Part shown: positions 22,014 to 41,456 of the stretch, in pieces
Numbering within the stretch: the stretch's first letter is position 1
Layout of the letters: each line of letters starts with the position of its first letter
From: Lineus longissimus
Taxonomy: Eukaryota
DNA length: 64,000 bases
Assembly (NCBI RefSeq): GCF_910592395.1
Contig: NC_088312.1
Location: forward strand, 2,933,858 to 2,997,857
Reading direction: 5' to 3'
Translations under genes and position numbers: made by a program
Notes under the pieces: generated by a model
What the model was told of the DNA's origin: nothing
Database searches by the model: none
Seen by the model: the letters and a program-made list of their open reading frames with translations, nothing else

Positions 22014-22142
22014 ATGGGCATTTTCAGTAACTGTCAGGCTGTATTAGAATTTGGAACCAGCATAAGATTCAAGGAAAAGAAGGCACTCCAAACTGATGTG
22101 ACAGATAATGGGGGTGTCATATCATACATAATCACAAAGAAG
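22014..22142 (+). CDS. PARP4: PARP4 exon 1 with start codon (BRCT N-terminus)
   Basis: MGIFSNCQAVLEFGTSIRFKEKKALQTDVTDNGGVISYIITKK; compare vertebrate PARP4 MGIFANC...KKKLQTDIKENGG. ATG at 22014 (ORF 22002..22187), donor aag|gtaatt. Confidence 0.8.
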
Positions 22143-22201
22143 GTAATTAGGTTCCTGGTTGTCTTTTCAAGACATGTAGAGCTATAACCTAGCCACTCAC
22201 A

Positions 22202-22359
22202 CTATAGATTCATGCACTTGATTGGGAACAACACTTACGAAGACGTCGCGTCACGTCACGTTACAGTAATGTAAAACCGTCAGAGTTACAATGCATCGTG
22301 AAGTGACGACGGCCAACACTATGTAAACGTTGTTCCCAATCAAGTGCATGAATCTATAG
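22202..22359. mobile_element. MITE (~158 bp) with 31-bp perfect TIRs and TA flanks, in PARP4 intron 1
   Basis: CTATAGATTCATGCACTTGATTGGGAACAAC at 22202-22232 and its exact reverse complement at 22329-22359; flanking TA is consistent with a Tc1/mariner (Stowaway-like) target-site duplication. Confidence 0.6.
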
Positions 22360-22542
22360 TAGCCTGGGTTTGTAAAATGTGTAAAATGAAACTTTCATGC
22401 CAATTCATAGTTATAAGTCCTGTTCATAAACTGAAAATGAACACTTATCTTATAAGTTCAGACTCTTGATTGTACAAAGCATGAAATGGTAATGCTTCTC
22501 TCTGGAGTATCATGTACATGTACATCTTCTCTGTGATTACAG

Positions 22543-22741
22543 AGCAGCTTTGTTGTGGCTGTTGGGATAAGCAATGCAGAGGATACCTACAAATGCCGTA
22601 CTGCCCAGAAGCTGGGAATCCCGATCGTTTCTGCAAACTTCATTCGAGATTCCATTGAGGCGGGAAAACTTCTTGACCACGATGGCTATCTCATGGCAGG
22701 AAAAACCAGAGCTGAGGAATTCAAAACAGGAAAAATAACTG
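22543..22741 (+). CDS. PARP4: PARP4 exon (BRCT)
   Basis: SSFVVAVGISNAEDTYKCRTAQKLGIPIVSANFIRDSIEAGKLLDHDGYLMAGKTRAEEFKTGKIT, in ORF 22555..22785. Confidence 0.85.
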
Positions 22742-23052
22742 GTAAGACTATTGTTCTGTTTGCTTTATATAGTCACAGCCTTTAGAAATGTCAGTAACAG
22801 TGATTTTTTAAAAAATATTTATCATATTTGTATGGTAAACTTAGAAGTAGCATTTATGTAGGGGAAATGTTGTCAAAGCTGTTAAAATAGGCACAGTTTT
22901 GTAAAGTTTTATTCCATCTTATTTACCTTAAATGGGCACAGTGGGCCCCTAGGGGCTGCAGGGTGCAGGGCCCTTCTAAATATGCTTACTAGGCACTAGT
23001 TGAGGAATAACACTCGGAATACCATGTAAATGTTTCAGTTTTCTATTTTTAG

Positions 23053-23168
23053 GGAAAGCTGTTACCAAATTGACCCAGAAGAAGAAGCTGAACGTAAACA
23101 TTTCAAGCATCAAAGTTTGGAACTCTGATGACAACTCTGCCCCTGACTTCAACCATGAGAGGTTCCAG
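23053..23168 (+). CDS. PARP4: PARP4 exon
   Basis: GKAVTKLTQKKKLNVNISSIKVWNSDDNSAPDFNHERFQ (ORF 23070..23345), phase-consistent. Confidence 0.75.
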
Positions 23169-23290
23169 GTTGCAAAGTTTGCACTGTTCATGGTGAGGTT
23201 TGATTTGCTTCTTCTAGTCACAATGCCTACTCTATCAGAGTATGCTTACTGTTTTCATAATTCACATCATTGTTTTGATTTTCATTGTAG

Positions 23291-23341
23291 GTTCCTCCGA
23301 AGGATCAAAAGTCACAGAAGTTTGGGAAACAGACCCCAAAG
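23291..23341 (+). CDS. PARP4: PARP4 micro-exon
   Basis: VPPKDQKSQKFGKQTPK, bounded by ttgtag| and |gtagga. Confidence 0.65.
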
Positions 23342-23498
23342 GTAGGAATGACATTAGAATAGAGTGCAGGGAGTTTCCAACACTGACAGTAGGGCTTGAA
23401 TGTAGTGCAAAGTGTATAAGTCAAAGGCTTTATGTCAAAGTTCCAAGTGTTGGCCATGAGGTCAAGTTTGGGCCATGAAGCCATAACTGATGATGATA

Positions 23499-23530
<32 letters not shown>

Positions 23531-23671
23531 AATGATGATGTCAGCATGCACACTTATGTAAGGTAGGCAATTCTGTTCACAAAGAGTTGGTGATATATTT
23601 CTGGAAGCAAAAGGATTCAATGAAGAACATTTGTCTCACTTGTACATGTAGGCATTAAATCTATTTTTCAG

Positions 23672-23785
23672 AAGGAAGACCCAGAAACCGGTGATATGTA
23701 TTCAGTTGAACTCCATGCCGATCCCGAAGCACATGATAACCAGATGAAGTACAGGATCTTCACCAGCTATGGACCATTTTCATTG
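23672..23785 (+). CDS. PARP4: PARP4 exon
   Basis: KEDPETGDMYSVELHADPEAHDNQMKYRIFTSYGPFSL. Confidence 0.75.
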
Positions 23786-24038
23786 GTACCTATGCCATTC
23801 TTTCTTGTTTTCAACTTCATGATCTGGCATTAGGTGTGACACAAAGCCTAAAAATATCAGTTTTGGAAGAGTGGAATGTCTGTTACCTGGTGTCAGTTCT
23901 ATTAGAGACAGTGATTTTGGTCCCAAATATGCCATTTCTACATTCTTTCTGCAGTTTGACCTGTGTAATTTGGATACCTCTCCGTAAAGGACAGAATTTC
24001 AAAGATCAAAAGCCAACCTGATGATTCACATATTTCAG

Positions 24039-24182
24039 GCTGAGCACAAAAACCTAAGCCGTTACATGAACTCCATAGATGAAGCCCTTGCGGTGTATTC
24101 AAGTGTCTACAAGGATTATCCTGAGAAGAAACCTTTCAAAGGTCAACTGCCAGGTCATATTGGATCCAGGAAGCTGAAACAG
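24039..24182 (+). CDS. PARP4: PARP4 exon (PARP regulatory helical domain)
   Basis: AEHKNLSRYMNSIDEALAVYSSVYKDYPEKKPFKGQLPGHIGSRKLKQ (ORF 24021..24248). Confidence 0.8.
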
Positions 24183-24329
24183 GTGAGTTCATTTTGCATG
24201 AAACCCTTACATAATATTATGTTCTTGATACTCATCTGTGGCTTGTGAAAAAGAATTTCAGTGTTATGAGTTCAATGTGTTGGTTGAAATCGTCGCATGA
24301 TAAGATAACAGAATGTTTTGTCTTTTCAG

Positions 24330-24467
24330 GCGTATCGTGAAAAGAGTGTCGGTGGCGCTCAGCTTGATTCACACATTTCTAAAGTTGTCAGCCACCTGTG
24401 GACTGAGGCTATGGGGGAGTTAGGTGACGTTGTCTCTCTCCCTTTGAGCAGCATTGGCAATGAGAAG
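24330..24467 (+). CDS. PARP4: PARP4 exon (regulatory domain)
   Basis: AYREKSVGGAQLDSHISKVVSHLWTEAMGELGDVVSLPLSSIGNEK. Confidence 0.75.
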
Positions 24468-24730
24468 GTACTAGGGAAACTTTTTTGAATCTGTTTAGTT
24501 CCACTTTGAAAGAAGATTTTCAAGCCATTATTCAATTTCAAGTATCAATGAGTGGTATAGAATTCATCAGAATGGTAATAAATGGGAATAAATGCATATA
24601 GTGCTCTTTGCGACAGTTCAGGTGTACAGTATAAAAAGTGCTATATAAGAACTTACCTACATTTTGTATTTGTTGTGAATATAGCTTGAAATTATCTATT
24701 AGCATTGTCTTAACTTATCAAACATTGCAG

Positions 24731-24907
24731 GTAGAGAAAGGAGAAAGTCTTCTGAAGGAGCTACTGACGGCCTTGGATAAGGGAAAACCCCAGGATGAAC
24801 TGCAACGATTATCGGACGAGTTCTATGTAGAGATCCCGCATCATCCCAAGCACCGTGAGCTCCTCAATAGCAAGAAGCTTCTTGCAAAGAAGCAGGATCT
24901 CTGCCAG
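24731..24907 (+). CDS. PARP4: PARP4 exon (regulatory domain)
   Basis: VEKGESLLKELLTALDKGKPQDELQRLSDEFYVEIPHHPKHRELLNSKKLLAKKQDLCQ (ORF 24638..24952); vertebrate PARP4 has ...LIPHKGTMPKEVNLGLLAKKADLCQ. Confidence 0.85.
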
Positions 24908-25104
24908 GTACAGCAGGAAGTCAAACCCTTGGGACTAATGATAATGATATGAATATATTTCTTTAGCATGAATACTTTCAATGAAGTGTAAGATAAGAGA
25001 CTCCTGTTGTAGACTCGATGTTACTTTATCTTGCCTTCTTAGCTCCCTTTAGAGTCACTTTAAATGAGAGAATAGAGTTTCAGTTTTTTAAATGTTTTTT
25101 CCAG

Positions 25105-25263
25105 TTGATCCGTGACATGTATGCAGTGGCCGAGGCTACCAACTGGAGCAGCAGGTGTAGCCCTGATGCTCAGTACAATGCCTTGAATTGTGAGATTGAA
25201 CTACTGACGGAGAAGAGTGAGAGGCAGAAGATACATGATTTACTCAGGGAGTCTGTTTTTCCG
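25105..25263 (+). CDS. PARP4: PARP4 exon (regulatory domain)
   Basis: LIRDMYAVAEATNWSSRCSPDAQYNALNCEIELLTEKSERQKIHDLLRESVFP; vertebrate LIRDMVNVCE... Confidence 0.85.
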
Positions 25264-25478
25264 TGAGTTATTGCGATTTGAAATATCACACTTAGGACTT
25301 GAATAATTTGTTTGTCATTTGTTATCAAGCTGAATGTCATTTGAACTACACTGGTACTCTAAAATGTGAAATGATAGTGAGCAACGACACATTGCAAAAT
25401 TTCAACCGTATTGCATTAATAATTGAAAATAACTATTGGCCTAAAAGTGTAATCCGTGCAATACAGAGCAATTCTAAG

Positions 25479-25636
25479 TGTCCATTTCCATGTTCCAGCG
25501 GTGAACCTGTGCCATCTTTCCGCGTCTTCACCGTGGTCCGTCCGTTGGAGGATCAGAATTTCTCGAGCAACATCCACAACAAGGAGCTGCTCTTCCATGC
25601 ATCTGGTGTCCACAACTTTGTTGGGATTCTGTCGAG
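25479..25636 (+). CDS. PARP4: PARP4 exon (catalytic domain, His of the H-Y-E triad)
   Basis: CPFPCSSGEPVPSFRVFTVVRPLEDQNFSSNIHNKELLFHASGVHNFVGILSR. The acceptor is ambiguous: 25479 is in frame, whereas the stronger polypyrimidine acceptor at 25499 would break the frame. Confidence 0.7.
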
Positions 25637-25862
25637 GTATATTTCAAATTAACTAGGTTTTAAAGATGGTTTATTACATTCGTTGCAGTTGATTTAAAAG
25701 TGTGTAACTTTTTGCTGTTTTGCTAGGATTCTTCCACAACCTTCCACATTTCAAAATGCAATAGTTTATACATGTGTTCCGCATGCTTTGACATTATGAA
25801 TTGAGTTCTGGAATCAACATGACTATAGTTATGGCAACTTTCTTCTCCTCTCTTCGCTCTAG

Positions 25863-25961
25863 GGGATTGTTGCCACCGAAGGTGATTGTGGACGACTACG
25901 GTGGAACAAGATCAGATATTGGAATGCTTGGCAGTGGAATGTACTTCTCCAACTCTACAAC
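25863..25961 (+). CDS. PARP4: PARP4 exon (catalytic domain, Tyr of the triad)
   Basis: RGLLPPKVIVDDYGGTRSDIGMLGSGMYFSNSTT; vertebrate CRGLLLPKVVEDRGVQRTDVGNLGSGIYFSDS. Confidence 0.85.
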
Positions 25962-26262
25962 GTAAGTATAGAAATATCCTCTAAGTGTGGCCAGAAGCAT
26001 CAATCGATCTTCATAGATATTTGCTAGAAATAAGTCTTGAGAGAACTTAACGGAGGGAAAGAACATGACACACTCACTTTAGCTTAAACTATGTCATTTG
26101 AATGTCCTCTGCATTTGATATTACTATCGTACGTAGATTCTGTAGCAGTCCTTGCAATTTTATTCAGCGATCTGCCCAGCTTGGTTGTCAACACTGCTCC
26201 CCTTGGCCATGATGAATAGTATTGATTTTAGTACATTTTCAGTTTTTGATTTTGTCTTCCAG

Positions 26263-26446
26263 AACGAGTCTGAAGTATTCTTCGCCCAGCAAGACATTGC
26301 ATTCTCGCATGATGGCGGTGAGCGAAGTTGCCTTGGGTGATGTCTACAAGACGCATAGATATGACACAGAGCTGAAGGCGCCCCCTAATGGCTACCACAG
26401 TGTTCTTGGTGTGAGCAAAATACACGGTAGTGAGTCGCAATTTGTG
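26263..26446 (+). CDS. PARP4: PARP4 exon (catalytic)
   Basis: TSLKYSSPSKTLHSRMMAVSEVALGDVYKTHRYDTELKAPPNGYHSVLGVSKIHGSESQFV (ORF 26222..26509). Confidence 0.85.
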
Positions 26447-26566
26447 GTGAGTGGCGATGTTTATCATGGTGCATTGCGATCGAACACACAAGAGTCAAAT
26501 GTCATTTGAACTTTTCTGAAATCTCTGGCTCTGATTAGGCATTTGAAAGTTTATCCCTATTTCCAG

Positions 26567-26723
26567 GATGACGAGTACGTGATATATGATACAAAGCAGC
26601 AGAGAATCAAATACCTTGTTGAGTTCTGGCTCCCAGAAGATGGATATAGGCCAGAATATCAGTTCGATCAAGCAGAGGTTGAGGATAGTGATGTTGCTCA
26701 TGATGATCGGGTGACAGGCATCG
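26567..26723 (+). CDS. PARP4: PARP4 exon (catalytic Glu, DDEYVIYD)
   Basis: DDEYVIYDTKQQRIKYLVEFWLPEDGYRPEYQFDQAEVEDSDVAHDDRVTGI (ORF 26543..26734). Confidence 0.85.
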
Positions 26724-26955
26724 GTAAGAATTAGTTTACATCAAGTTTTAGTCCATGAGAAATCTAATAACATTGATGGAACCTAAGTATACATGTACAC
26801 CAAGTTTATTGAAATTGAGGTTGACTATCAGAAATTCTAGTTAAGTCACTTCTGTCTGCCTGACTTAAAGACGTCTGTAAAAAAAAAGCCGGAGAATTTT
26901 CTTTTTCTTTGTTATTGTGGGTGTCATATTTCTTATTCATGTGATCTTTTCGCAG

Positions 26956-27086
26956 ATCTGAAAGACATTCAAAATGTCAAGAATCCACTTGATGATGTTG
27001 CACTGGGCCTGGTTTCGAAGTCAGATGCCAAAGTTCCTCTGGAATCCGTCCATGTTCGTGCTCAGCTGATTGATCTAGCAGGAAAG
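26956..27086 (+). CDS. PARP4: PARP4 exon (start of VIT)
   Basis: DLKDIQNVKNPLDDVALGLVSKSDAKVPLESVHVRAQLIDLAGK. Confidence 0.8.
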
Positions 27087-27375
27087 GTGAGTCCATTACT
27101 GAACTGTTGTTCTGTGATTGGCTTAACTGTTTACTTTATATCTTCTTGCATGTTCTCCCCCAACCCTCGCAATTTTCATTATCGCTTATGACTCGTATGA
27201 CTCACTATCAAGATGTCTAGTTAAAAGCCGGTGTGAGTTATTTCTGGTCACCAACTCTGAAAAAGGTTGGTAGGCTGGTAGTTCGATGTTGAAATAATCC
27301 TATTCTGGCATAGATATCCTTGAGGTTCGACTAAGTCGTCTCACTTTTCGTATTAACAGAATCATTTTTCCCAAG

Positions 27376-27600
27376 GTTGTTGTATTACAAGAGTACCGCA
27401 ATGACAGCTCGATACCAATAGAGGCCAAGTATGTTTTCCCGCTGGATGAGATGGCAGCTGTGTGTGGATTCGAAGCATTCATAAATGGCAAGCATATTGT
27501 CGGCGAGGTGAAAGAAAAAGAGACGGCTCATCGTGAATATAAACAGGCGATTGCTGAAGGTCATGGGGCGTACCTCATGGATCAGGACGAGGAGACTCCC
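27376..27600 (+). CDS. PARP4: PARP4 exon (VIT domain)
   Basis: VVVLQEYRNDSSIPIEAKYVFPLDEMAAVCGFEAFINGKHIVGEVKEKETAHREYKQAIAEGHGAYLMDQDEETP; near-identical to the vertebrate block ...AAVCGFEAFINGKHIVGEIKEKEEA...GHGAYLM. Confidence 0.9.
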
Positions 27601-27961
27601 GTAAGTAATCTTTAATAGGTGATTTTTTTTCAACAACAATTCTGCCCTAACTCTGTTCAATGGCAGTTTTTATATAGCGTTTTCAACTGATCAGTCACTG
27701 TCACTATTATAGGTCCCCACAGAGGCACTCCGAGGCTTCAACTTATCAAGTGTCTGTCGTCATTTTAGCACTCACTTTGCTCATCCTGAAAATAGGACCA
27801 AGATGTGACCAGGGCAGGGTTTTTGAACCCACAACCCTTGGATTAAGAGTCAGATACCTTAACCAGTATCCCACTTTAATGTTGGGTGTGCTTGTGCGGG
27901 ATTGGATTTGTGTTACTTTGTGGTACATGTCTTATCTTTTGGTAATGCTTAACCCTAACAG

Positions 27962-28126
27962 GAGATCTTCACCGTTAGCGTTGGAAACCTGCCTCCCTAT
28001 GCTTCCGTACTCATCAAGATCACTTATGTCGCAGAGTTACAAGTGGAGGAGGAGAAGATAAACTTTGTTATCCCAGGCAGTGTGGCCCCCTGGAAGAAAG
28101 ATAAAGCACTTGGAGAGATTACACAG
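27962..28126 (+). CDS. PARP4: PARP4 exon (VIT domain)
   Basis: EIFTVSVGNLPPYASVLIKITYVAELQVEEEKINFVIPGSVAPWKKDKALGEITQ; vertebrate DVFTVSVGNLPPKAKVLIKITY. Confidence 0.9.
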
Positions 28127-28343
28127 GTTTGTACTTAAATCAGCACTCACTTGGACTTGATCCTCTACAATGTTTGTTCGGTCTTATCATGCCCAAAACC
28201 CTCTCGCCTATGCCAGTGTTGGCTCCAATCCCTGGTCATGACTTCCAGTGTAGAGATATCTTTGATTTCTAGTTGAAATCATTGGTCTTAATATGTACAT
28301 TTAGAAAGCGAATGTTGACGATGTTTACATATCTTTTTTTCAG

Positions 28344-28463
28344 ACCACACATGATACCGTCAAAGTAGATGAGGATACTGACGATCTGTCCATCCAAGTT
28401 TCTGTGGAGATGCCGTTCCCCATCCGGAGTATTGAGAGCCCGACACACAGAGTTGCTATAAAG
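28344..28463 (+). CDS. PARP4: PARP4 exon
   Basis: TTHDTVKVDEDTDDLSIQVSVEMPFPIRSIESPTHRVAIK. Confidence 0.8.
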
Positions 28464-28677
28464 GTAAGCCAGCAGCAGGACTGGCAGTTCAGTCTTAATT
28501 CCTTTGGTCAAACCATTCCCATATTCCCAATGTACATATTAGTTACCTGGAGATCAACCTATTAGACACTCTAACCTCTACAGTCTCTGGATATAGGCTC
28601 TCTAACCTCTACAGTCTCTGGATATAGGCTCTCTAACCTCTGCAGTCTCTGGATATAGGCTCTATTCATGTTTTCAG

Positions 28678-28827
28678 AGAACTGAAACCAAGGCAGTAGT
28701 TATGATGAAGGAGAACCAGTCGATTGGCTCAAGTTTCCTCCTACAGATTAGTCTCGCCGAGATCCATGTCCCCAGGATGTGGGTCGAGCGAGACTCTGAA
28801 AAAAATCTGGATGACGAACAATTCGAG
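28678..28827 (+). CDS. PARP4: PARP4 exon
   Basis: RTETKAVVMMKENQSIGSSFLLQISLAEIHVPRMWVERDSEKNLDDEQFE; vertebrate ...LPRMWVEKHPEKE. Confidence 0.85.
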
Positions 28828-29126
28828 GTATGCTTGTTGATTGATTCACCACCTTCTGCCATTTTGTTTTGAGGTTGTTGATATATATAACTGGGCAAAT
28901 ACATCAGGCTTGTGCGTATGAAAGACAGTAAAATATATTTCGTTGCATCATCTGACCACTGTTGGTGGGAGGCAGTTATTGTATGGACCATTTCCGTGTC
29001 ATGAACTTGGTACATATCCGTGAAAGATACTTAAGATTGTGCAACAACCTGTTCTCAACAAGAAGCAAAATTGAAATTGGAAAGGTGACGACAGAACGTG
29101 GGCTAAAGAATGCTTCTCCATTTCAG

Positions 29127-29313
29127 GCCTCTATGCTGACCTTCTACCCAGAGTTTGAAACTGAGGAAAACCCGAGCTTTGAAGTAGTGTTTCTGCTCGA
29201 TTGCTCCAACTCGATGGACCACTCTTCATCGATGGAAGCAAGGAAGATACTACTGCTCGCGCTGCATCATCTCGATTCTCAGTGCAGCTTCAATGTTGTC
29301 AAGTTCGGCACAG
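29127..29313 (+). CDS. PARP4: PARP4 exon (VWA domain)
   Basis: ASMLTFYPEFETEENPSFEVVFLLDCSNSMDHSSSMEARKILLLALHHLDSQCSFNVVKFGT (ORF 28962..29354). Confidence 0.85.
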
Positions 29314-29438
29314 GTATGCATCCATCGGCAAAAACTGGTAGATTAGAGTCATAACATTGGTGATATCATGTTAAAAGCCCATTTACCATTTGATACTTAA
29401 TCAGAAAGTGTTGACTCAATATTTGTTGATATTTTGCA

Positions 29439-29512
29439 GGTTTTGACGAGTTATTCCCATCGAGTCAGTTAAAGACGAAACAGAATGTCAAAATGGCAGA
29501 AAATTTCTTGCA
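29439..29512 (+). CDS. PARP4: PARP4 exon (VWA)
   Basis: GFDELFPSSQLKTKQNVKMAENFLQ. Confidence 0.75.
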
Positions 29513-29881
29513 GGTAATAAATGAGCAATTGAAAATAACTGCTTGTAACTGAGAAGGTGAACCTTGAAAGCTGGTTATGTCCTTTGAATGTTTCAATAAC
29601 CAACACAAAAATGGGTGATGTAAGAGCATTATCGACACTTATGTGTTAGTGTTCTCGTGTCTGTCAATCTGAGCTGTGTGCTACTGTAAACCGAGTAATG
29701 TTTGTGTACCATTTATTTAAATGTTAACAGGTAATTGTGAAAGTAAATGGACACAAAAAGAGAATTGAATTAAAATTTCTGTTAGTTGAAGGTCCATTAG
29801 ACTGCTATTTCATAAAATTGCAAAGAAACGTGGCTGCCAATAGTTCTGGGTTTCCGGTGTACCTTGCTTGTTTCATTTCAG

Positions 29882-30166
29882 AATGTAGCCAACCTCGGCA
29901 ACACAGATGCCTACAAGCCGTTGTTTTCATACTTCCTGCTGCCACCTGTGGACACAGTGAGAAACATCTTCCTGATCTCCGACGGCCATGTGACCAACTC
30001 TGATGCAACCCTGGCTTCGTTGAGGAATAACTTCAAACACACTCGACTCTTCACATTAGGTGTCAGTTCGTCCGCTAACCGCCACATGTTGAGGAGTCTT
30101 GCACAAGCCGGGGCTGGATTCTTTGAGTATTTTGACAGTAAAACTAAATCCAAGTGGGAGGGCAAG
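29882..30166 (+). CDS. PARP4: PARP4 exon (VWA)
   Basis: NVANLGNTDAYKPLFSYFLLPPVDTVRNIFLISDGHVTNSDATLASLRNNFKHTRLFTLGVSSSANRHMLRSLAQAGAGFFEYFDSKTKSKWEGK (ORF 29864..30205). Confidence 0.9.
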
Positions 30167-30392
30167 GTAAGACTTTGCAAACAGACGAAAATGAATCAAA
30201 AATAAGCACCATATGTTCATACCCAGTTTTGATGTCTTTATTAAGCCTGTCTTCAATATGCCAAATTGTGAGGTGCATCATCTCGATGTGTCTCAGCTAT
30301 ACTTTTGGTTCAGGCCATGATTGAACTGCCCTCAAACCTGAGCGCCAATCAACAGTGTTTCAATCAATCATTCATTCCTCATCTGATTGCAG

Positions 30393-30563
30393 ATCATTGC
30401 TCAACTCCACAAGGCCTCACAACCTGTGCTAACCTCAGTAAGCATAGAATGGAAACAACATGACAACTATCGGAGATATTGTATGCAAGCCCCGGCAAAA
30501 GTCACATCTCTCTTCAGTGGGTCGAGGTTGGTTGTCTACGGCTATGTACAGGATTGTACACAG
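30393..30563 (+). CDS. PARP4: PARP4 exon
   Basis: IIAQLHKASQPVLTSVSIEWKQHDNYRRYCMQAPAKVTSLFSGSRLVVYGYVQDCTQ; vertebrate ...ALQAPAQVPSLFLNDRLLVYGFIPHCTQ. Confidence 0.9.
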
Positions 30564-30666
30564 GTAGGATTGAGAATTATGCTGTTCTAGTCCATTGTTG
30601 AGCCTGCTTTTCATTCATTGCATTCAATATGATACGTTCAGAAAGTGGAAAGGGTCTTGATACTTG

Positions 30667-31078
30667 TGTCAGATATATACTGAATGATGTGTCAGATATA
30701 TACTGAACGATGTGTCAGATATATACTGAACGATGTGTCAGATATATACTGAATGATGTGTCAGATATATACTGAATGATGTGTCAGATATATACTGAAT
30801 GATGTGTCAGATATATACTGAATGATGTGTCAGATATATACTGAATGATGTGTCAGATATATACTGAATGATGTGTCAGATATATACTGAATGATGTGTC
30901 AGATATATACTGAATGATGTGTCAGATATATACTGAATGATGTGTCAGATATATACTGAATGATGTGTCAGATATATACTGAATGATGTGTCAGATATAT
31001 ACTGAATGATGTGTCAGATATATACTGAATGATGTGTCAGATATATACTGAATGATGTGTCAGATTTATACTGAATGA
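30667..31078. repeat. Minisatellite: 23-bp unit GTGTCAGATATATACTGAATGAT x ~18 in a PARP4 intron
   Basis: Near-perfect tandem copies are directly visible, with occasional T>C variants in the unit. Confidence 0.95.
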
Positions 31079-31128
31079 ATTGGAATGATAGTTGTATCTA
31101 AATAATGGTCAGATTTCATTTATTTCAG

Positions 31129-31209
31129 GCAACTTTGACTGCGATTGTTGATGGAAGAGAGGTGTCTACAATCGTCTCAACATCTGAATTGAGTATATCG
31201 GCTGGCAAG
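31129..31209 (+). CDS. PARP4: PARP4 exon
   Basis: ATLTAIVDGREVSTIVSTSELSISAGK. Confidence 0.8.
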
Positions 31210-31431: not shown

Positions 31432-31512
31432 ATTGTTCATCAGTTAACCGCACGAGCAGCCATCCGGGATTGGGAAACTGGTCTTCTTGATGACAACAGA
31501 ACTGAGCACGAG
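31432..31512 (+). CDS. PARP4: PARP4 exon
   Basis: IVHQLTARAAIRDWETGLLDDNRTEHE; vertebrate MIHKLAARALIRDYEDGILHENETSHE. Confidence 0.85.
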
Positions 31513-31783: not shown

Positions 31784-31885
31784 GTCGTGAAGCGAAACAG
31801 GAAAAGTTACATTATTGATCTCAGTAAGGAATATTCTATTGTGACGCAGTTCACCAGTTTTGTGGCGATTGAAAAGCGTGAAAAG
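31784..31885 (+). CDS. PARP4: PARP4 exon
   Basis: VVKRNRKSYIIDLSKEYSIVTQFTSFVAIEKREK; vertebrate ...LIIKLSKENSLITQFTSFVAVEKRDE. Confidence 0.9.
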
Positions 31886-31991
31886 GTAGGCATGTACGAT
31901 TTTAAAGGGCGTGGCAAGGGGCTGTTGCCAGGGTACGTGATTTGTGTAGTACTGTGTCTCATATCTAAAGCCAATGATATCTTTTCTTCAG

Positions 31992-32213
31992 GACGAAGAG
32001 TTTCATGATCCACACATATCTGATCTGGTCGAGAATGAAGATGTTGATATTCTGGATTACATGGAGTATGAAGGAGAATGTCCGTCCAGGGAGGACAGTG
32101 AGTCGGAGTCGGGGTCCAGCGTGGACAGTGAGTCCGAGTTGAGGTCGGGTTCCACATATGATGACTATGACGTCTGTGAGGCACTGTCACTACCCCAGTT
32201 GGCGGAATCATCC
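31992..32213 (+). CDS. PARP4: PARP4 exon (acidic linker)
   Basis: DEEFHDPHISDLVENEDVDILDYMEYEGECPSREDSESESGSSVDSESELRSGSTYDDYDVCEALSLPQLAESS (ORF 31974..32279), donor |gtaagc. Confidence 0.8.
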
Positions 32214-32224
32214 GTAAGCATGCC

Positions 32225-33152
32225 ATTATGTACCACTTATATGCTGATGACAGTCAATTGTATGTGGCCTTCACTATAATTGAGATTAGTACCACCTGCT
32301 CCAAGATCTCTAATGCTGTCCACGATTTAAATCTCTGCTTGGTTGACAACTTTCTTAGCTGTAATGGCGACAAGACCGAGATTCTGCTAATCTGTTCCCG
32401 CAGGTTCAGCAGCACTATTAATCTCCCCGCCATCCGTATCATTGATGCAAATGTATATTCTTCTGTTTCTGCAAGAGATTTGGGTGTGATCTTGGACCGT
32501 GATTTCAATTTCAAAGAACACATAAACACCTGTGTACGGGCCACCAATTTTCACATTCGTAACATCGGGAAAATCAGAAAATATCTAACTCCAAATACCA
32601 CCAGGTTATATGTCCAGGCTCTTGTAATATCTCGCCTGGATTTCTGTAATTCCCTTTTCCTTGGTTTTCCCAATTCAACAATTATACCCCTACAGAAGGT
32701 ACAACACTCTGCCACTCGCCTAATTACCAAGACCAAGAAACGATCTTCCATTTCCCCAGTACTCAGGTCTCTACATTGGCTTCCTGTGCAACAGCGCATC
32801 AAGTACAAGGTTCTCCTTCTTACTTACAAGTGTCTTCACCAACTTGCTCCCCAATACCTTTCAGAACTTCTCACCGTTCATACCGTTTCTCGAACACTGC
32901 GCTCTTCATCGGCCGTTCATCTGTCTATCCCAAAGGCCAATGTCATGTCAGTCGGTGGTAGAGCATTTTCAATTGGAGCCCCTCAGCTGTGGAACAAACT
33001 TCCTTAACCTGTTAGGAACTGCAGCTCTCTGTTATCTTTCAAGGGACAACTGAAACATTTGCTTTTTAAAGAGGCCTATCAAGTGCTTTGAGCGGCCAGT
33101 TAATGGTTGGATACTGCGCTATATAAGACTCGTATTATTATTATTATTATTG
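32225..33152 (+). mobile_element. 5'-truncated L2/CR1-clade LINE fragment (reverse-transcriptase C-terminus, 3'UTR and microsatellite tail) in a PARP4 intron
   Basis: ORF 32228..33007 begins at the RT YADD motif (LYADDSQLY) and carries the clade-typical C-terminus ...RSLHWLPVQQRIKYKVLLLTYKCLHQLAPQYLSELL...RTLRSS...GGRAFSIGAPQLWNKLP. A frameshifted ...SFKGQLKHLLFKEAY tail follows, then a (TTA)n tract at ~33133-33151. Confidence 0.8.
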
Positions 33153-33879: not shown

Positions 33880-34031
33880 CTATAGATTACATTTGTTAGG
33901 CATTTTCCAGTTTCCCATACTCACTTCTTCCACGAATGGCTTGCATTTGCAAATTGCACAACCATTTTCATCCCTCTCGTAGTCATTTCCAGGGCAAGCC
34001 ATTCGGCATTTTGGAGTTGCTCCACAGTACC
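33880..34031 (-). CDS. Nested antisense gene, exon 2: antistasin-like cysteine-rich domain through the stop codon
   Basis: Minus-strand acceptor CGACAG|, then GYCGATPKCRMACPGNDYERDENGCAICKCKPFVEEVSMGNWKMPNKCNL*. The Cys pattern C-x3-C-P-x-G-x7-NGC-x2-C-x-C matches the antistasin-domain consensus (leech antistasin CRKTCPNGLKRDKLGCEYCEC). Alternatively a GTGAGT donor after ...FVEE would splice on to a further unseen exon. Confidence 0.5.
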
Positions 34032-34119
34032 CTGTCGAAAGAGATATTCAAATATACTCTGCACAAAACTGGACTTGTTCATTATATCTTTTTGAAATTT
34101 TCTTGAATCGATACCTTAC

Positions 34120-34183
34120 CTTCTGCCTGTACTTTCAGAAGTAGTATTCCCAACAGAAATGATAGACTATACAGATGCTTCAT
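34120..34183 (-). CDS. Nested antisense gene, exon 1: signal peptide of a secreted antistasin-like peptide
   Basis: Minus strand: ATG MKHLYSLSFLLGILLLKVQAE (hydrophobic signal-peptide-like), followed by donor GTAAGG. Confidence 0.5.
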
Positions 34184-34716
34184 GTTTTTGTCTCTGTGGT
34201 CTTAAACTGGAATTGTGTGTGCCGTCAAGTGCTATGATTTCGTCCTTGTCTCCTATGCTTGTATTGAAAACAATTTTTATCCTCAAACACCTGTTTTGTT
34301 TATGCATGGAAAACTTTAGGTGTTCCACTTCATCGTGACTTTCCTATCAAGATAACAAAATTTGGCGAAAAATAAATTATACATCTAGATATCCATTATC
34401 TCAGATTGAACTTGAAATTCATATAGATAAGATTTTACATGGTCGTTAAAGTGCTGAACTCCCACAATTTGTTCATTGAATACATGGAACCTACACAGCT
34501 GTTAAATTTCCCCACATAAAAACCAAGTCAGAACTTATCAAAGCAGTCTTGCAGAAAAGTTACGCTTCCTAGTCTTGGTCTTGCTTCAGTATGATGCTAA
34601 CGCCCCTTATGACTGATTAAGAACCAGTAGGCTATTAGAATATTACTCACACCAGTCACTGATTGCACCAACCTTAATTACTGACAATTACATTTTGATT
34701 CATTCATATATTTCAG

Positions 34717-34810
34717 AGTACCATCTGGGCTGATGACATTCAGCCAATCACGTTTCAGGCAGGAAGGTCCAGCTCAAGGATCGAGTCATTCGATGAGTTT
34801 CAGGATTTAG
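34717..34810 (+). CDS. PARP4: PARP4 exon
   Basis: STIWADDIQPITFQAGRSSSRIESFDEFQDL, phase-consistent. Confidence 0.65.
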
Positions 34811-35070
34811 GTAAGGTTTACAACTCAATTTAAAGGGGACTTCAGGCAGAGCTTTAGGCTCTGATTAATGGTCACCTATTTGCACAGTTAGGTGATTGTG
34901 AAATAGACGAACCTGTTCACATTGATGCTGTAATGGAATTCAGAAATGGCAATTCCACTCTTGAATAGAGTAGAAAAGAGAGGACTTTTTGCCTGCTTCT
35001 GAATTTTTGTAAGTTTACCACTTTTTGTCTTTCAATTTGTCAAAAGAATTGTATTTTTGTCATTCTTTAG

Positions 35071-35175
35071 ATGAGGGAAGTCTTGATTTCGATGACTATG
35101 AACTCTCCTCAGATGCAGTGGCCGACGCTCCAGAATATTTGGATCTTGCAACAGACACTTTAGCAAGAGTTGCTG
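35071..35175 (+). CDS. PARP4: PARP4 exon
   Basis: DEGSLDFDDYELSSDAVADAPEYLDLATDTLARVA; its phase-1 end joins the giant exon in frame (g + ag = E). Confidence 0.65.
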
Positions 35176-36409
35176 GTAATTTATTTCACTTTTTTCTGTT
35201 CTTCGTGATGACTCTTTTTAATACCTTGGTACTGCCATGATCTGTCAGGACCCAGATTTAGAGCTAAAAAGTTTTAAGTGCAGAGAAACAATACCAGGTA
35301 CATTCTTGTTCTGTTTGTTGAGTCTTTACTCTTTGGCAGACCGTTCGAGATCCAATTAGCTCCACTGAATCAAATTCATTTTAAATTCTATATTGCCCTA
35401 CCCAGTTCAAGGCGAAGGACGCCATCACCATTGATGGAAAACCGCATGCAAGAAATTTGCTATGAAGACTCGGAAACTTATTCTCTTATGTTCTCAGGAG
35501 GTAATGCTACAGTCTTGTCATTCACCTCCTTCGGGAGGAAGTTAGAATTAAAACTCTTTCTCGTTCCCACTCGTCCAAATTTTGGCAGCCGCCCTGATGA
35601 TATTTTTTATATCACATTTTGCCACTACTTCATTGTGTTTTGGATCAGACCACAAATGCGCAACTCGTGCTGACAGTGCTTCCGTTATATTAGTATGTAA
35701 AGCATAATATCTGATTGTATAGATCATGACCTTGACTGCTGAATTCCGTTGTATGCCACTACATGTCAGGAGTAACAATTTCATTGGTAATAGTACTCAG
35801 TCATAGATTCTTTGATGGCGTTTAATCAATATACATGTAGATTCTACTGTGAGCCATCAATGATTAGATGATGGAGAATGTTCATCATAGATTCATTGAT
35901 AGAAACACAGGTTGTATCTATGGTGTTATCATTGACTCTATCATGGTATCTATAATAGCCTTTTTTATGGGTCATCAACAAATTGTTTTTGAATTGGTGA
36001 ACAATTCTTTTTTTTCCAGAATTCTGAAGACTAACTCTAATGGTTTTATACTTTGATACTTGCATCTATGATGGTGGGGCCCATCATAGAATATACAATG
36101 GGTCATCATAGACTCTAATGCTTGCCCGACAGAGAATCTGTGACGGGACATGAGTGTAAAACATGGTTTGTGATATTCATCATAGATTGTACCATGGGCC
36201 CATCAGTGATTCGTCATGGATTGTACCATGGGCCCATCAGTGATTCGTCATAGATTGTACCATGGGCCCATCAGTGATTCGTCATAGATTGTACCATGGG
36301 CCCATCAGTGATTCTATGATGGAAACGTTTGCCTCTGTCAAGTGGTGAGATTTGTCTTCATTTCATACCGAATGACTTTGACACAAGTTACCATCTTTAT
36401 TTACTTCAG

Positions 36410-39400
36410 AGATAGAACAGTCTTTGAAAAGACCCTCACCACCTGAAGCATCAATAAGACGTAGACTACCCCTACCCCCACCACCAGCACACCCAGCCCC
36501 ACCAATAGCACGGGCAAGTTACAGATCTGCAGTTTTTACAAACGAAGCTAAGGCAGGTTTTGCAGGAGCCTACAGAGGTGGACCAATAATGGCTGATGCA
36601 TTACCACCACCATCACCACCTATGAGAGGAGGTGGATCAACTCCACCACCACCACCCGGGGCAGGTTTTGCAGGAGCCTCCAGAGGTGGACAATTAATGG
36701 CTGATTCACCACCACCACCACCACCCAGGGCAGGTTTTGCAGGAGCCTCCAGAGGTGGACAATTAATGGCTGATTCACCACCACCACCACCACCCAGGGC
36801 AGGTTTTGCAAGAGCCTCCAGAGGTGGACAATTCATGTTTAATTCACCACCACCACCACCACCACCCGGGGCAGGTTTTGGAGAAGCCTCCAGAGGTGGA
36901 CAATTAATGGCTGATTCACCACCACCACCACCACCACCACCACCACCCGGGGCAGGTTTTGCAGGAGCCTCCAGAGGTGGACAATTTATAATGGCTGATT
37001 CAACACCACCTTCACTTATGCCCAAGTCATCTGTATTAATGGCTATGCGAGAACTCCCTTCACCATTACCTAAAGTGGCTGCTACTAGAGATACGACACA
37101 CTCGCTTACAACACCAGTCGATGCAGGTTTGAAAGTAATGGCAGGAAGGCATATAAGAATGGGGATGAAAAGTCTGCCAGCAAAAAGCCTCGATGCATCA
37201 CTTGATGACATTGTGAAACCTACAACCGATAAACCAGATGTAAGGGAACATGCTTTTTCACGAGCGAGGCCCCGGAGGTTGTCTGAGTTGAATAAAAGCC
37301 AACGGCTGGGGATCAGCGATGCACCAGAACCAGTTTCATATGGCGTATACAGTTCAATGGCAGATGAGAGGGAGATGGGTGCAGAGACTGTTGAAGTTGC
37401 TGCTCCTACACCAAAACCTAGACCGAGGGTAAGTGAAGAGGCAGTTTTGATTGATGAGACATGTGGGAGTAATTTGTTTGATTCTAGTTCTCTTCTCGTG
37501 GATGAAGTTGATGGTGCTGAGCGGCAAGGTTTGGTGTCTAGTAGTATGTCACGTTTGAACAAGAAAGTCTTGGGTTGGCCTAATCATGCCAGTTCTCATC
37601 TGGCTCATCCTTTATATAACCTTACCAATCATACTTTTGGTTCTAACAGTCGTGCATTTGCCCCAACCAGTCCTACATACGGCCCAACTAGTCCTTCATA
37701 TAGCCCGACTAGTCCTACATACAGCCCAACCAGTCCTTCATATAGCCCGACTAGTCCTACATACAGCCCAACCAGTCCTTCATTCGGCCCAACTAGTCCT
37801 TCATATAGCCCGACTAGTCCTACATACAGCCCAAGCAGTCCTTCATACGGCCCGACCAGTCATTCATATAGCCCGACTAGTCCTGTCTTTAAACCGACCA
37901 GTCCTTCATTAGTCAAACCTGATTGGTTACATTTTCAGCCAACTAGCCCTTCCTCTCCAATGCATGCAAGACCTGAGCATGGTGAGAAAACCCTCTTGCC
38001 CTGTTCTTTGAATTCCGATAACAAAGTTACTAAAATAACTGTTGAATCAGAAGCTTCACGTATTGACGAAAGACCAAAGTTTGGAGAAATAAAATCATCA
38101 TTGTTTGGCTCAGTATCTCGAACAGGTGGATTGGTAGGAACACGAACATCCCAGTCTGGAGCTCCATCTGAAACGGGTGGCTTTGGAGGAACACAAACAT
38201 CCTTGTTTGGAGCTCCATCTCAAACAGGTGGCTTTGCAGGAACACAAACATCCTTGTTTGGAGCTCCATCTCAAACAGGTGGTTTTGGAGGAACACAAAC
38301 ATCCTCATTTGGAGCTCCATCTGAAACGGGTGGCTTTGGAGGAACACAAACATCCTTGTTTGGAGCTCCATCTGAAACGGGTGGCTTTGGAGGAACACAA
38401 ACATCTTCATTTGGAGCTCCATCTGAAACGGGTGGCTTTGGAGGAACACAAACATCCTTGTTTGGAGCTCCATCTGAAACGGGTGGCTTTGGAGGAACAC
38501 AAACATCCTCATTTGGAGCTCCATCTGAAACAGTAGGCTTTGGAGGAACACAAACATCCTTGTTTGGAGCTCCATCTCAAACAGGTGGCTTTAGAGGAAC
38601 ACAAACATCTTCATTTGGAGCTCCATCTGAAACAGTAGGCTTTGGAGGAATACAAACATCTTTGTTTGGAGCTCCATCTGAAACGAGTGGCTTTGGAGGA
38701 ACACAAACATCCTCATTTGGAGCTCCATCTGAAACAGTAGGCTTTGGAGGAACACAAACATCCTTGTTTGGAGCTCCATCTCAAATGGGTGGCTTTGGAG
38801 GAACACAAACATCCTCGTTTGTAGCGCCAGCTAAGTCAGGTGGTTTTGGAGCATCTTCACAACCATCTGGGTTCGATGCTCCAGCGCAGTCAAGTTCTTT
38901 CGTTGGAGCGACGTTGGAGCAAACGTCTGGATTTCGAGTACAGGCTCTACCAATTGCTTTTGGAGCAACATCCCAAAAACCATCTGGGTTTGGATTTGGA
39001 GTACCAGCTCAGTCAAGTGCTTTTGGGGCAGCAACACAACAACAATCGGGATTTTCCTTTGGGGCACCAGCTCAGCCAAGTGCTTTTGGGGTAACACCCC
39101 AAAAACCATCTGGATTTGGATTTGGAGTTCAAGCTCAGTCAAGTGGTTTTGGGGCAACAACACAACCACAATCTGGATTTAGATTTGGAGTACCAGGTCA
39201 GTCAAGTGCTTTTGGGGCAGCAACACAACAACAATCGGGATTTTCCTTTGGGGCACCAGCTCAGCCAAGTGCTTTTGGGGTAACACCCCAAAAACCATCT
39301 GGATTTGGATTTGGAGTACCAGCTCAGTCGAGTGTCCTTTTAAGAGCTGCTGCAAAACCTGTCATTCAAGATAAGCAATCAACAAAGCGAGTATTATTAT

Positions 39401-39945
39401 CCATCCCTTCTGAAGAACCATTGCCTAAACATGATCCAGTGCCACTTCTGAAGAAGACAATAAATGAGAAAAAAAGCGCTTGCTGGGGTGGTCCACCGAG
39501 TGATTTTGCTGAGAGTTTTGGCAGTGATCAGTTGAAGGAACTCGTGGCTGAGATGCAGTTACAAGGTGATCTTAAAGAAGATGATGTGTATGAGATTTCT
39601 GAGATGCTGAAGGAGGTGGAAAAGGCTGAGGAACATGACAAATCGGACAAAACGGCTTTTGGTGGATCTCAGCGGACATGTCCTCCAAATTATTGGATAG
39701 ATTCCTCCGATGATGAGTGTCTGGTTGGCTCTGTCCTGAGCACTGAAGATGGAGAAGAGGTTGGCGAAATACAAGCAAGGAGGAGCTCAGATGTTGGACC
39801 AGCAGCCAAAACGGTGATGCTTGATGCTCCAAAGACTGGTCCAACAACGTATTTGATTAGATCTTCAAATAAAGAAATTCCAGTTGCTCCTGAAGTGCAT
39901 GATCATATGCTGGGTGAGATAGAGGATGTTACTCCAAAGGAGAAG
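36410..39945 (+). CDS. PARP4: PARP4 giant exon: Pro-rich 23-aa repeats, CTD-like YSPTSPS heptads, and FG repeats
   Basis: ORF 36424..40029 is continuous for 1201 aa. Upstream of its annotated start the frame stays open back to the acceptor cttcag| at 36409 and joins the previous exon in phase. Its most likely 3' end is the donor aag|gtagga at 39945, followed by exons restoring the conserved C-terminus. Alternatively it reads through to TGA at 40029 (or a donor at 40013). Confidence 0.7.
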
Positions 39946-40143
39946 GTAGGAACCAATGGATTAGCATTAGTATTTAGGAGGATTCACGTGTTGGCTTCTA
40001 TTCCTCATCTAAGGTACTTCCATGGTTGAAACTTCTACAGGAGACACCCCTATTGGCTACTTTGTGTACCTTGATCTGACCTTCCCAGCTCCTGCCTTTT
40101 GTCCCCCTTTAACAGTAGTATAATGCAAGTCTTCTCTTCTCAG

Positions 40144-40209
40144 CGTGGAGCGGTGAGGGAAAAACGGGATTCGGTTTTTGAGACATACGACATTTTGGAG
40201 CAAGGACCA
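40144..40209 (+). CDS. PARP4: Putative PARP4 micro-exon
   Basis: RGAVREKRDSVFETYDILEQGP, acceptor tcttctcag|, weak donor cca|gtagaa; it places the conserved P|W junction seen in vertebrate PARP4 (...DAVPW|TELL). Low confidence. Confidence 0.35.
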
Positions 40210-40429
40210 GTAGAACAACAACATAAAAAATGTATCAAAGACATATTTGACACCAATCCTTATGCATCACAAGGCAAGTATATCAACTTTGAAACACAAA
40301 GGACAGATCAAAACAAGGCCTAAGGTATATTCCAAAGAAATCTTGTTATCCTGTGACCAAGGCCTTTTAGAATGATAGACCCAGGATAATGATTTATGGT
40401 ACTTTTCCTGTTTCGATATGTACTTTCAG

Positions 40430-40706
40430 TGGTTGGTATACAGTACTAATAATATTCCATTGAATGATTTTATCACAGATTCTGAGGGTTACTTCAGTGA
40501 CACAGCTATTCGAAACGTCCTCCTTGATAAGAAGATGAAAAAGCTAACCGGTGCTGAAATTGAAGAATTGGTCAGAAATGGCAATAGTTCATACCCTGAG
40601 GAAATGTTTTGGGATTTCTCTAATCCTGCCATTTACGAATGTCTGCTTGGTGTGTCTGTTGAGACTTGTCGTAATCTACTTCAAGATGCTGGTTTGCAGT
40701 CTTTGG
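40430..40706 (+). CDS. PARP4: PARP4 exon (vault/MVP-binding C-terminal domain)
   Basis: WLVYSTNNIPLNDFITDSEGYFSDTAIRNVLLDKKMKKLTGAEIEELVRNGNSSYPEEMFWDFSNPAIYECLLGVSVETCRNLLQDAGLQSL (ORF 40418..40747); vertebrate ...QTEDGFWKLTPELGLILNLN...KQKGIQSLG. Confidence 0.8.
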
Positions 40707-41153
40707 GTAAGTCATGGAAGTTACCAAATAGCGGTAAAGCATGGTGAACTTAACTTACCCAAAAGTTCCTAAAAAACCCAGAGAGACGAATTCTGTGTTG
40801 TCTGTTGGACTCAAACGCGGGCCCCTGCATTCATGGGTCAGTGAGCAGTGTTAGCCACTGAGCTATGTGGCTGCTCTTCATCAGACTGACGAAGTTCCCA
40901 GAAGGGATTTTAGCTCTTTAGTAGACTTTTCAATCAAAATTGGTGTGCTACGTGCGGATTATGCCATGGTTGACATTGCCTGACTTCTTAACCACCATTG
41001 TTGTGCAGATGATAAAATGCACCAAGCAAGTCAGTAAGGTAAATTTGACATCCGGAATGGTGTCTTTATCTCTTTATGTCTTCTTCTACATGGCCACTAT
41101 TGAGAATCTTTCTAAATACATATAAGTTTCATATTTTTTTGGTAATTTTGCAG

Positions 41154-41425
41154 GTGCCAAGGCTGTGCTCGAAATTAGTCGCTTGGTGGCAACATTGATT
41201 GTAATATATCACGTTGTCCACAGTCTGACTGATTGGGTCACGAAGAAAAGATGCCTGTTGAAGGAGGGTTACATCGAATGTGGACAAGAAAGCACTTTAA
41301 GAGCCCTCAAAATGGCGAAGACGTTTTGTCAAGCGAGGGAAAGAGGTTTCCCACTCACATACTCGACCTTGGAACTCGGCAGTAGCTGGGACAATGTGAT
41401 TCAGAAGTGGCTAGAAATCATTTGA
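41154..41425 (+). CDS. PARP4: PARP4 terminal coding exon (MVP-binding domain), stop TGA at 41423-41425
   Basis: GAKAVLEISRLVATLIVIYHVVHSLTDWVTKKRCLLKEGYIECGQESTLRALKMAKTFCQARERGFPLTYSTLELGSSWDNVIQKWLEII*; vertebrate ...LDLIATMLVLQFIRTRLEKEG...RLELGNDWDSATKQLLGL. AATAAA follows at 41451. Confidence 0.85.
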
Positions 41426-41450
41426 ACTGATGCTGGTCTGTGTACAAGTA

Positions 41451-41456
41451 AATAAA
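41451..41456 (+). terminator. PARP4: PARP4 polyadenylation signal AATAAA
   Basis: AATAAA lies 26 nt after the stop codon. Confidence 0.6.

Follow-up and report, generated by a model that had tools for sequence, protein, structure and literature searches.

The 64,000-nucleotide stretch analysed here, the window (Lineus longissimus contig NC_088312.1, positions 2,933,858 to 2,997,857), very probably contains an intact, single-copy orthologue of PARP4, the vault PARP or clade 5 PARP, of an invertebrate animal. The gene is modelled on the + strand in 30–32 exons over ~19.4 kb, from an ATG at 22014 (or 22002) to a TGA at 41423–41425, and its fullest version has 32 exons and a coding sequence (CDS) of 8,055 nt for 2,684 amino acids, with zero internal stops or frameshifts. 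The predicted protein has the domain order BRCT, helical regulatory domain, ADP-ribosyltransferase (ART) domain, VIT, von Willebrand factor A (vWA), an inter-alpha-trypsin-inhibitor (ITI)-like region, a linker of ~1,300 residues and a C-terminal helical MINT domain. Exons were rebuilt from open frames, splice consensus, phase matching between coding cores and tblastn with homologues, and the N-terminal ones were additionally read by eye from the sequence. A listing of stop-free + strand stretches between 19 and 44 kb gives serial short frames that translate as PARP4 from N- to C-terminus. An earlier note on this DNA had claimed a complete PARP4 gene, open to refutation by frameshifts or stops, its domain blocks following one another exon by exon in consistent phase, and the rebuilt, uninterrupted CDS bears out both statements. 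The density of genes, the shortness of the introns and the spread of the best matches point to an invertebrate metazoan.

Profile, structure-database and orthologue comparisons all identify the protein as PARP4. Pfam models exceed their curated cut-offs in the PARP4 order, as the earlier note had anticipated, for BRCT_2 (8.1e-11) and BRCT (4.2e-07; residues 2–92), PARP_reg (8.1e-11; residues 284–374), the PARP catalytic domain (7.6e-28; residues 420–577), VIT (5.6e-36; residues 638–750) and VWA_3 (1.1e-16; residues 892–1042, with VWA_3 and VWA together spanning 892–1046). When the regulatory and catalytic region was compared with all PDB sequences, human PARP4 chains 8sx1 and 11jf scored best (E = 2.8e-63), followed by PARP1 (1.1e-22), PARP2 (5e-20) and PARP3 (1.5e-18), and the named database matches sharing the ART-VIT architecture are PARP4. 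Aligned with PARP4 of the nemertean Tubulanus (45% identity over 1,206 columns), the coral Desmophyllum (50%) and the sloth Choloepus (40%), the model runs colinear and shows no gap at any exon junction, and so withstands the comparison with other species that had been proposed as a check. To our knowledge, PARP4 is to be expected in nearly all animals. The gene call is routine in itself, and it adds a PARP4 orthologue from a lineage absent from the protein collections searched.

The ends of the gene and its exon count can be read with differing precision. The ATG at 22014, previously given as the start, has a good Kozak context; a second in-frame ATG at 22002, four codons 5′ of it and directly preceded by a TGA and an acceptor-like AG, is an equally possible start, which leaves the N-terminus uncertain by four residues. 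Position 41456, previously given as the end, is the last base of an AATAAA polyadenylation-signal hexamer (41451–41456, +), read directly 26 nt past the stop. The span of ~19.4 kb thus stands as claimed; the claim of at least 32 exons stands in part, the count being 30–32 depending on three donors and two optional exons. Exon 26 has three phase-1 candidate donors (32097, 32127 and 32175), of which the first two fall in a coding tandem repeat of 30 nt. Exon 27, like exon 28, has phase 1/1, and the five combinations of donors and exons that were translated all remain in frame (30–32 exons, 2,633–2,684 amino acids). From donor 32175, splicing to exon 28 is viable; joining to exon 27, or to exon 29 with nothing between, was rejected, with a TGA or TAG formed across the junction. 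Intron 30 is GC-AG and every other intron GT-AG.

The BRCT domain, placed at 22014–22741 by the earlier note, corresponds to exons 1 and 2 and to the Pfam match at residues 2–92. Exon 1 (22014–22142) holds the start codon and the first BRCT half, with an open frame, an AAG/GTAATT donor (the slash marks the splice site) and tblastn matches to the sloth and Tubulanus N-termini, and exon 2 (22543–22741) holds the second half, placed by junction scores, Pfam BRCT/BRCT_2 and tblastn (47% identity to Tubulanus). Exon 3 (23053–23192; acceptor TTTTTAG/GG, donor ATG/GTGAGG), colinear with the orthologues, follows at the WGR-equivalent position; a WGR-type domain lies between the BRCT and helical domains in PARP4 (Frigon and Pascal, 2023, PMC10711553), and the segment at this position here (residues ~110–260) is colinear with orthologues and weakly conserved. 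Exon 4 (23291–23341), of 51 nt and phase 0/0, is a possible cassette (acceptor TTGTAG/GTT, donor AAG/GTAGGA), with weak similarity to Tubulanus at its position. Exon 5 (23672–23785; splice sites read, aligned with coral and nemertean PARP4) and exon 6 (24039–24182; junction scores, splice sites, orthologue alignment) lead to the helical (PARP_reg) domain, which aligns with human PARP4 residues 259–360 and starts in exon 7 (24330–24467; splice sites, human alignment from residue 259), continues through exon 8 (24731–24907; motif, tblastn, Pfam PARP_reg at residues 284–374) and ends in exon 9 (25105–25262; motif, junction, human PARP4 alignment). The five peptide motifs quoted previously all lie on the + strand at the expected places: LLAKKQDLCQ (24878–24907) ends exon 8, LIRDM (25105–25119) opens exon 9 across a genuine GT-AG junction (24907/25105, phase 0), and LLFHAS (25587–25604), GSGMYFS (25930–25950) and DDEYVIYD (26567–26590) fall in the ART domain. 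The last three carry His450 (25596–25598) in exon 10 (25499–25636), Tyr490 (25942–25944) in exon 11 (25863–25961) and Glu560 (26573–26575) in exon 13 (26567–26723), each exon placed by motif, junction and alignment; exon 12 (26263–26446; junctions, alignment, PMC10711553) carries Thr497, the equivalent of human T484 and PARP1 K903.

The VIT domain starts in exon 14 (26956–27086) and ends in exon 16 (27962–28126), both placed by tblastn, junction and Pfam, and its core, exon 15 (27376–27600; tblastn, Pfam VIT 5.6e-36), is the best-conserved exon, with 72–80% identity to other phyla. Exons 17 (28344–28463) and 18 (28678–28827), found by tblastn, junctions and orthologue alignment, precede the vWA domain, which starts in exon 19 (29127–29313; tblastn, junction, Pfam VWA_3/VWA at residues 892–1046) with a DCSNSM MIDAS-like motif and continues through exon 20 (29440–29513; junction, orthologue alignment) and exon 21 (29882–30166; tblastn, junction). 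The VIT and VWA blocks had been called near-identical; this is right for the VIT exon, at 72–80% against vertebrate, coral and nemertean sequences, and not for the vWA exons, at ~40–50%. The ITI-like region in exon 22 (30393–30563; tblastn, junctions) is followed by exons 23 (31129–31209) and 24 (31432–31512), both by tblastn and junction, and by exon 25 (31784–31885; junction, tblastn), which includes SIVTQFTSFVAIEKREK and has 78–81% identity to amphioxus and nemertean PARP4. The acidic linker starts in exon 26 (31992–32127 with the donor at 32127, the donor being uncertain; junction search, translated combinations). The optional exon 27 (34763–34810; 48 nt, exon scan and junction scores) is the weakest part of the model, and leaving it out does not disturb the frame; exon 28 (35071–35175; junctions), acidic and of 105 nt, is the best-scoring candidate exon in the gap. 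The giant exon 29 (36410–39945; 3,536 nt), an open frame with phase-compatible acceptor and donor, encodes the low-complexity linker, and exon 30 (40144–40273) ends in DTNPYASQ at the GC donor, placed by its junction and by the homologous site in a related-species contig described below. The MINT domain is divided between exon 31 (40479–40706), with Ser2593 (human S1614), similar to the related contig within the exon and aligned with human PARP4, and exon 32 (41154–41425; junction, tblastn, alignments), with Lys2597 (human K1618), YSTLELGSSW and the stop codon.

An intact H-Y-E catalytic triad had been claimed, and it is upheld by the alignment with human PARP4, which pairs H450, Y490 and E560 with identical human residues, namely the His in LLHGS, Y477 and E547; this residue mapping agrees with published numbering (Frigon and Pascal, 2023, PMC10711553). 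The NAD+-contacting equivalents of Ser904 and Tyr907 are also kept, and the protein is predicted to be a functional ADP-ribosyltransferase. The triad alone does not imply poly(ADP-ribose) synthesis, because human PARP4 carries H-Y-E yet is a mono-ADP-ribosyltransferase, its acceptor site being disabled by E544/D545 and, notably, by T484 at the position of PARP1 K903 (PMC10711553). In the window protein, T497 corresponds to human T484 and D558 to human D545 (PARP1 Y986). Because Thr497 stands at the K903 position, mono- rather than poly-ADP-ribosylation appears likely, and we predict with moderate confidence that the enzyme does not form polymers.

Exon 29, the one unusual part of the gene and one that the earlier note did not mention, lies within a 1,215-codon open frame (36382–40026) and encodes ~1,180 residues, or 44% of the CDS and protein. 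It is built largely of tandem repeats: five to six proline-rich units of 69–81 nt (36530–37016), eleven 21-nt units encoding YSPTSPS/T-type heptads (37657–37908), about fourteen 51-nt units encoding phenylalanine-glycine (FG) repeats (~38098–38835) and six further FG units of 63 nt (38928–39368). FG dipeptides number 46 in the linker and 3 in the remaining protein. The heptad YSPTSPS is the consensus of the RNA polymerase II C-terminal domain (CTD). The units are nearly identical, indicating recent homogenisation, and the linker, which is probably disordered, would have grown by in-frame tandem duplication of the proline-rich, YSPTSPS-like and FG units. Other identities for this region were considered and rejected. 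An FG nucleoporin such as POM121 does not fit, as no nucleoporin Pfam family matches and PARP4 domains lie on either side; RPB1 does not fit either, RNA_pol_Rpb1_R reaching 16.5 bits against a cut-off of 20.3 bits and RPB1 domains being absent. A 337-residue minus-strand open reading frame (ORF) at 36573–37583 is no gene, as it merely reads the proline repeats from the opposite strand, in Gly-rich form.

Comparable linkers occur in related proteins. The contig from a related species (JGI metagenome 3300040954, Ga0451425_018391, 4,953 bp) has a single frame that runs from FG repeats of another unit (STFGAPSKSSGLFGSTVQPSG) into two conserved motifs also present in exon 29, one of them CxGGPPSDF..FGSD.LKEL; recognisable counterparts of exons 30, 31 and 32 come next. 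Its DNA similarity to the window is limited to predicted exons (29–32), the introns having diverged; exon 31 shows 76% nucleotide and 71% amino-acid identity within the exon only, and conservation stops at the intron 30 donor (40273/40274), which reads CACAAG/GCAAGT in the window and CACAAG/GTAAGT in the contig. Metagenome relatives share 68–79% protein identity in exons 31–32 and 70% in a neighbouring NSUN-like gene. The closest matches to the C-terminus are metagenome proteins at 68–70% identity, with nothing closer in the collections searched, a 50%-identity library included, and a search with an NSUN-like exon likewise gave two matches, both metagenome proteins (70% and 34%). Among named animals, the Branchiostoma PARP4 linker has FG- and proline-rich stretches. 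Three gastropod entries have a heptad array followed by a PARP4-type MINT: Aplysia XP_005096629.2 (‘POM121’), Plakobranchus GFO43317.1 (‘RNA polymerase II subunit rpb1’) and Babylonia XP_076466998.1 (‘uncharacterized LOC143298150’). All end in MINT after YSPTSP heptad arrays, the first two also with G/FG and proline repeats, and, unlike the window protein, they have no catalytic half. Rather than nucleoporins or polymerase subunits, they are probably PARP4 models cut short, whose POM121 and RPB1 names were evidently prompted by repeat composition; the PARP4 linker repeats would explain the mislabelling of invertebrate fragments in public databases. In the literature searched, there was no paper linking PARP4 with YSPTSPS heptads or discussing FG repeats in PARP4.

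The C-terminal MVP-binding domain claimed previously is borne out by a profile search. Exons 31–32 alone match human PARP4 residues 1582–1703 weakly (E = 7e-4); a profile of the C-terminal domain, compared with the whole PDB, has human PARP4 residues 1573–1706 as its sole match (E = 2.9e-21), and the predicted MINT fold matches the MVP-bound human domain. HMMER with the last 419 residues against 1.84 billion representative proteins returned 11 matches, and nine of the ten that were looked up have a source name. Those from Lingula, Branchiostoma and Tubulanus are annotated as PARP4; those from Aplysia, Plakobranchus, Candidula and Babylonia have other names or none, and two more come from one JGI metagenome contig. 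Pfam found sub-threshold similarities only (DUF2141, Rpb1 repeat) in the linker and C-terminal half and has no MINT model; a weak resemblance to calmodulin/EF-hand immediately ahead of MINT (E ~0.4) was set aside as noise. In human PARP4, S1614A/K1618A abolishes MVP binding (Lodwick et al., 2025, PMC12280208), and both residues are conserved in the alignment as S2593 and K2597, within LQSLGAK. Vault association is a prediction by analogy with the human protein. In a recent structural paper the interaction is regarded as peculiar to vertebrates; the conservation of MINT and of both MVP-contact residues in the window protein and other invertebrate proteins argues that vault docking by PARP4 predates vertebrates.

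If human work is a guide, MINT would anchor the protein to MVP repeat domains R3–R5 on the inner vault wall through its SLGxK surface, and the long flexible linker would let the enzymatic N-terminal half move in the vault lumen (Lodwick et al., 2025, PMC12280208). The BRCT domain would contact vault RNA (Frigon and Pascal, 2023, PMC10711553), and the ART domain would use NAD+ to modify target proteins with single ADP-ribose units and not with polymers. The linker also raises the question of what role so long an FG/CTD-like tether plays within a vault. Its FG, CTD-like heptad and polyproline repeats recur in the window species, the related metagenomic species, gastropods and, in part, amphioxus, and may be more than neutral filler. 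As a long shot, they may be a functional low-complexity module, tethered in the vault lumen by MINT; with dozens in each particle, such modules could condense into an FG/CTD-like phase, which might recruit nuclear transport receptors or CTD-binding, WW or SH3 proteins as cargo. Such a module, if it existed, would put a molecular footing under the old and still unsettled connection of vaults with transport through nuclear pores.

Three other readings of the locus were weighed. The giant ORF might belong to something other than PARP4, as a nested gene, as an independent transcript of linker and MINT, or as sequence mostly spliced out of a vertebrate-like PARP4 of ~1,500 residues. Exon 29 is low-complexity and recently homogenised, and its inclusion is predicted from the sequence; the Aplysia and Plakobranchus entries, with their POM121 and RPB1 names, start within the linker, and Tubulanus has eight predicted isoforms of differing length. 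This reading is nonetheless quite improbable. The best acceptor (36410) and donor (39945) agree with the phases of the flanking exons, the repeat periods are all multiples of three, the non-repetitive spacers stay open, and in these spacers codon log-odds trained on exons 1–25 favour the model frame only. Human PARP4 has a Ser/Pro-rich linker, and without exon 29 nothing else in the model corresponds to it. The passage from ITI-like region through FG/proline linker to MINT occurs within one protein in Branchiostoma (KAI8502339) and Tubulanus (XP_074640441), the related contig keeps one frame from FG repeats into conserved motifs, and the simplest explanation of the gastropod entries is that their gene models are truncated. 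Codon-position variation among the repeat units, a test for coding constraint, told nothing, since recent homogenisation has left the units almost without differences. The other lines agree in pointing to exon 29 as a true PARP4 exon rather than an artefact or a nested gene. It is highly improbable, too, that the locus is a decaying or non-functional copy (a unitary pseudogene or a catalytically dead enzyme) that only seems intact: an 8-kb CDS in 30–32 exons has no stop or frameshift, the catalytic and NAD+-contacting residues are kept, and exons are conserved where introns have diverged from the related species. Among the features that might suggest decay, the one non-canonical donor stands in a strong AAG/GCAAGT context, typical of functional GC-AG introns. 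The residue after the catalytic His is Ala451 (25599–25601; the PARP1 Gly863 equivalent), giving HAS for the usual HGS; the position appears tolerant, because the coral orthologue has Ser there. A retroelement fragment also adjoins exon 26, starting 5–10 nt past the candidate donor at 32175.

A PARP4-clade enzyme could be genuine and still work outside vaults in this lineage, its MINT-like domain serving another partner, and the replacement of human R1689 and Q1682 by Thr and Gly lends this some weight. We consider it improbable: S1614 and K1618, the residues proven by mutagenesis, lie in a GxxSLGxK motif whose G, S, L and G do not vary among the 10 aligned invertebrate C-termini and whose Lys is present in 7 of the 10, the window protein included, the predicted MINT fold agrees with the MVP-bound human domain, and PARP4 and vaults co-occur phylogenetically (PMC4245714). 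Together with the retroelement fragment and Ala451, several further observations weigh against an intact, vault-associated, mono-ADP-ribosylating PARP4. The gene model is known here from the DNA sequence, and exons 4 and 26–28 and the exon 29/30 junction owe their places to splice consensus and phase. No Pfam match to WGR or to PF26166, a PARP4 N-terminal family precomputed for bird and mammal homologues, was obtained in the model protein. A Foldseek comparison with the PDB missed the MINT match, neither vault RNA nor any other Rfam family reached threshold in the 64-kb window, and the window contains neither MVP nor TEP1. At the acceptor site, M484 (25924–25926) replaces human N471, Met being the PARP1 state, and V557 (26444–26446) replaces human E544; the coral orthologue has Met at the N471 position as well. 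With Met, Val and HAS, the site is not identical to the human one, and the choice between mono- and poly-ADP-ribosylation is one that we infer. An intact PARP4 orthologue remains the reading we adopt.

The introns and flanks of the gene contain other repeats and genes. Just past exon 26, a sense-oriented fragment of ~970 nt (~32180–33152, +) holds a 275-codon YADD ORF (32180–33004) and a (TTA)n end; Pfam had no match to this ORF. From YADD and L2/CR1-type C-terminal motifs, we take it to be the reverse-transcriptase tail of a long interspersed nuclear element (LINE), so that the fragment would be a 5′-truncated LINE in the intron. Intron 1 has a 160-bp element (22201–22360) that looks like a miniature inverted-repeat transposable element, its terminal inverted repeats being 38 nt long and 95% complementary. 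Intronic tandem repeats occur at 23488–23540 ((TGA)18), 28569–28663 (31 nt × 3), 30665–31078 (23 nt × 18, 99% identity) and 36175–36314 (34 nt × 4). Four neighbouring genes were recognised, none of them a vault component: a DENN and PLAT (DENND5-like) gene upstream (254–~19000, +), an RsmB/NSUN-type methyltransferase gene (43834–46132, −), a GH47 alpha-mannosidase gene (46902–~50700, +) and an hnRNP Q/R-like gene with acidic domain and RRM (59823–63587, +). The DENN gene region has a near-perfect inverted repeat (15669–15864), whose arms of 90 nt are 98% complementary and are separated by 16 nt. The GH47 exons are followed downstream by a 36-nt tandem repeat (52281–52676; ~8–11 copies, 97–99% identity) whose minus-strand frames are open, but there is no sign of a gene.

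Compared with known systems, the window protein shares with PARP1, PARP2 and PARP3 the ART fold with H-Y-E and the helical regulatory domain, and with PARP1 also BRCT. These enzymes lack VIT, vWA and MINT, the window catalytic domain has a score against PARP4 that is better by 40 orders of magnitude, and the K903 equivalent, needed for chain elongation, is Thr. The PARP4 proteins of Tubulanus polymorphus (XP_074640441; 2,103 residues), Branchiostoma belcheri (KAI8502339) and Desmophyllum pertusum are colinear with it in all folded domains at 45–50% identity, and those of Tubulanus and Branchiostoma also have long proline-rich or FG linkers before MINT. Tubulanus lacks a heptad array and Branchiostoma has one heptad-like unit, whereas the window protein, with 11 heptads and ~46 FG, is the longest of the set. 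Human PARP4 (Q9UKK3; PDB 8sx1, 9bw6, 11jf) has the same domain order, from BRCT through a disordered linker to MINT, a coding region likewise cut into many small exons, the same Thr at the K903 position and Asp at the Y986 position, and the SLGxK MVP-contact motif. The window protein differs from it in sequence, with ~40% identity over the N-terminal half, in HAS, in Met for N471 and Val for E544, at R1689 and Q1682, and in being ~960 residues longer, because its linker of ~1,300 residues carries tandem proline-rich, YSPTSPS-like and FG repeats.

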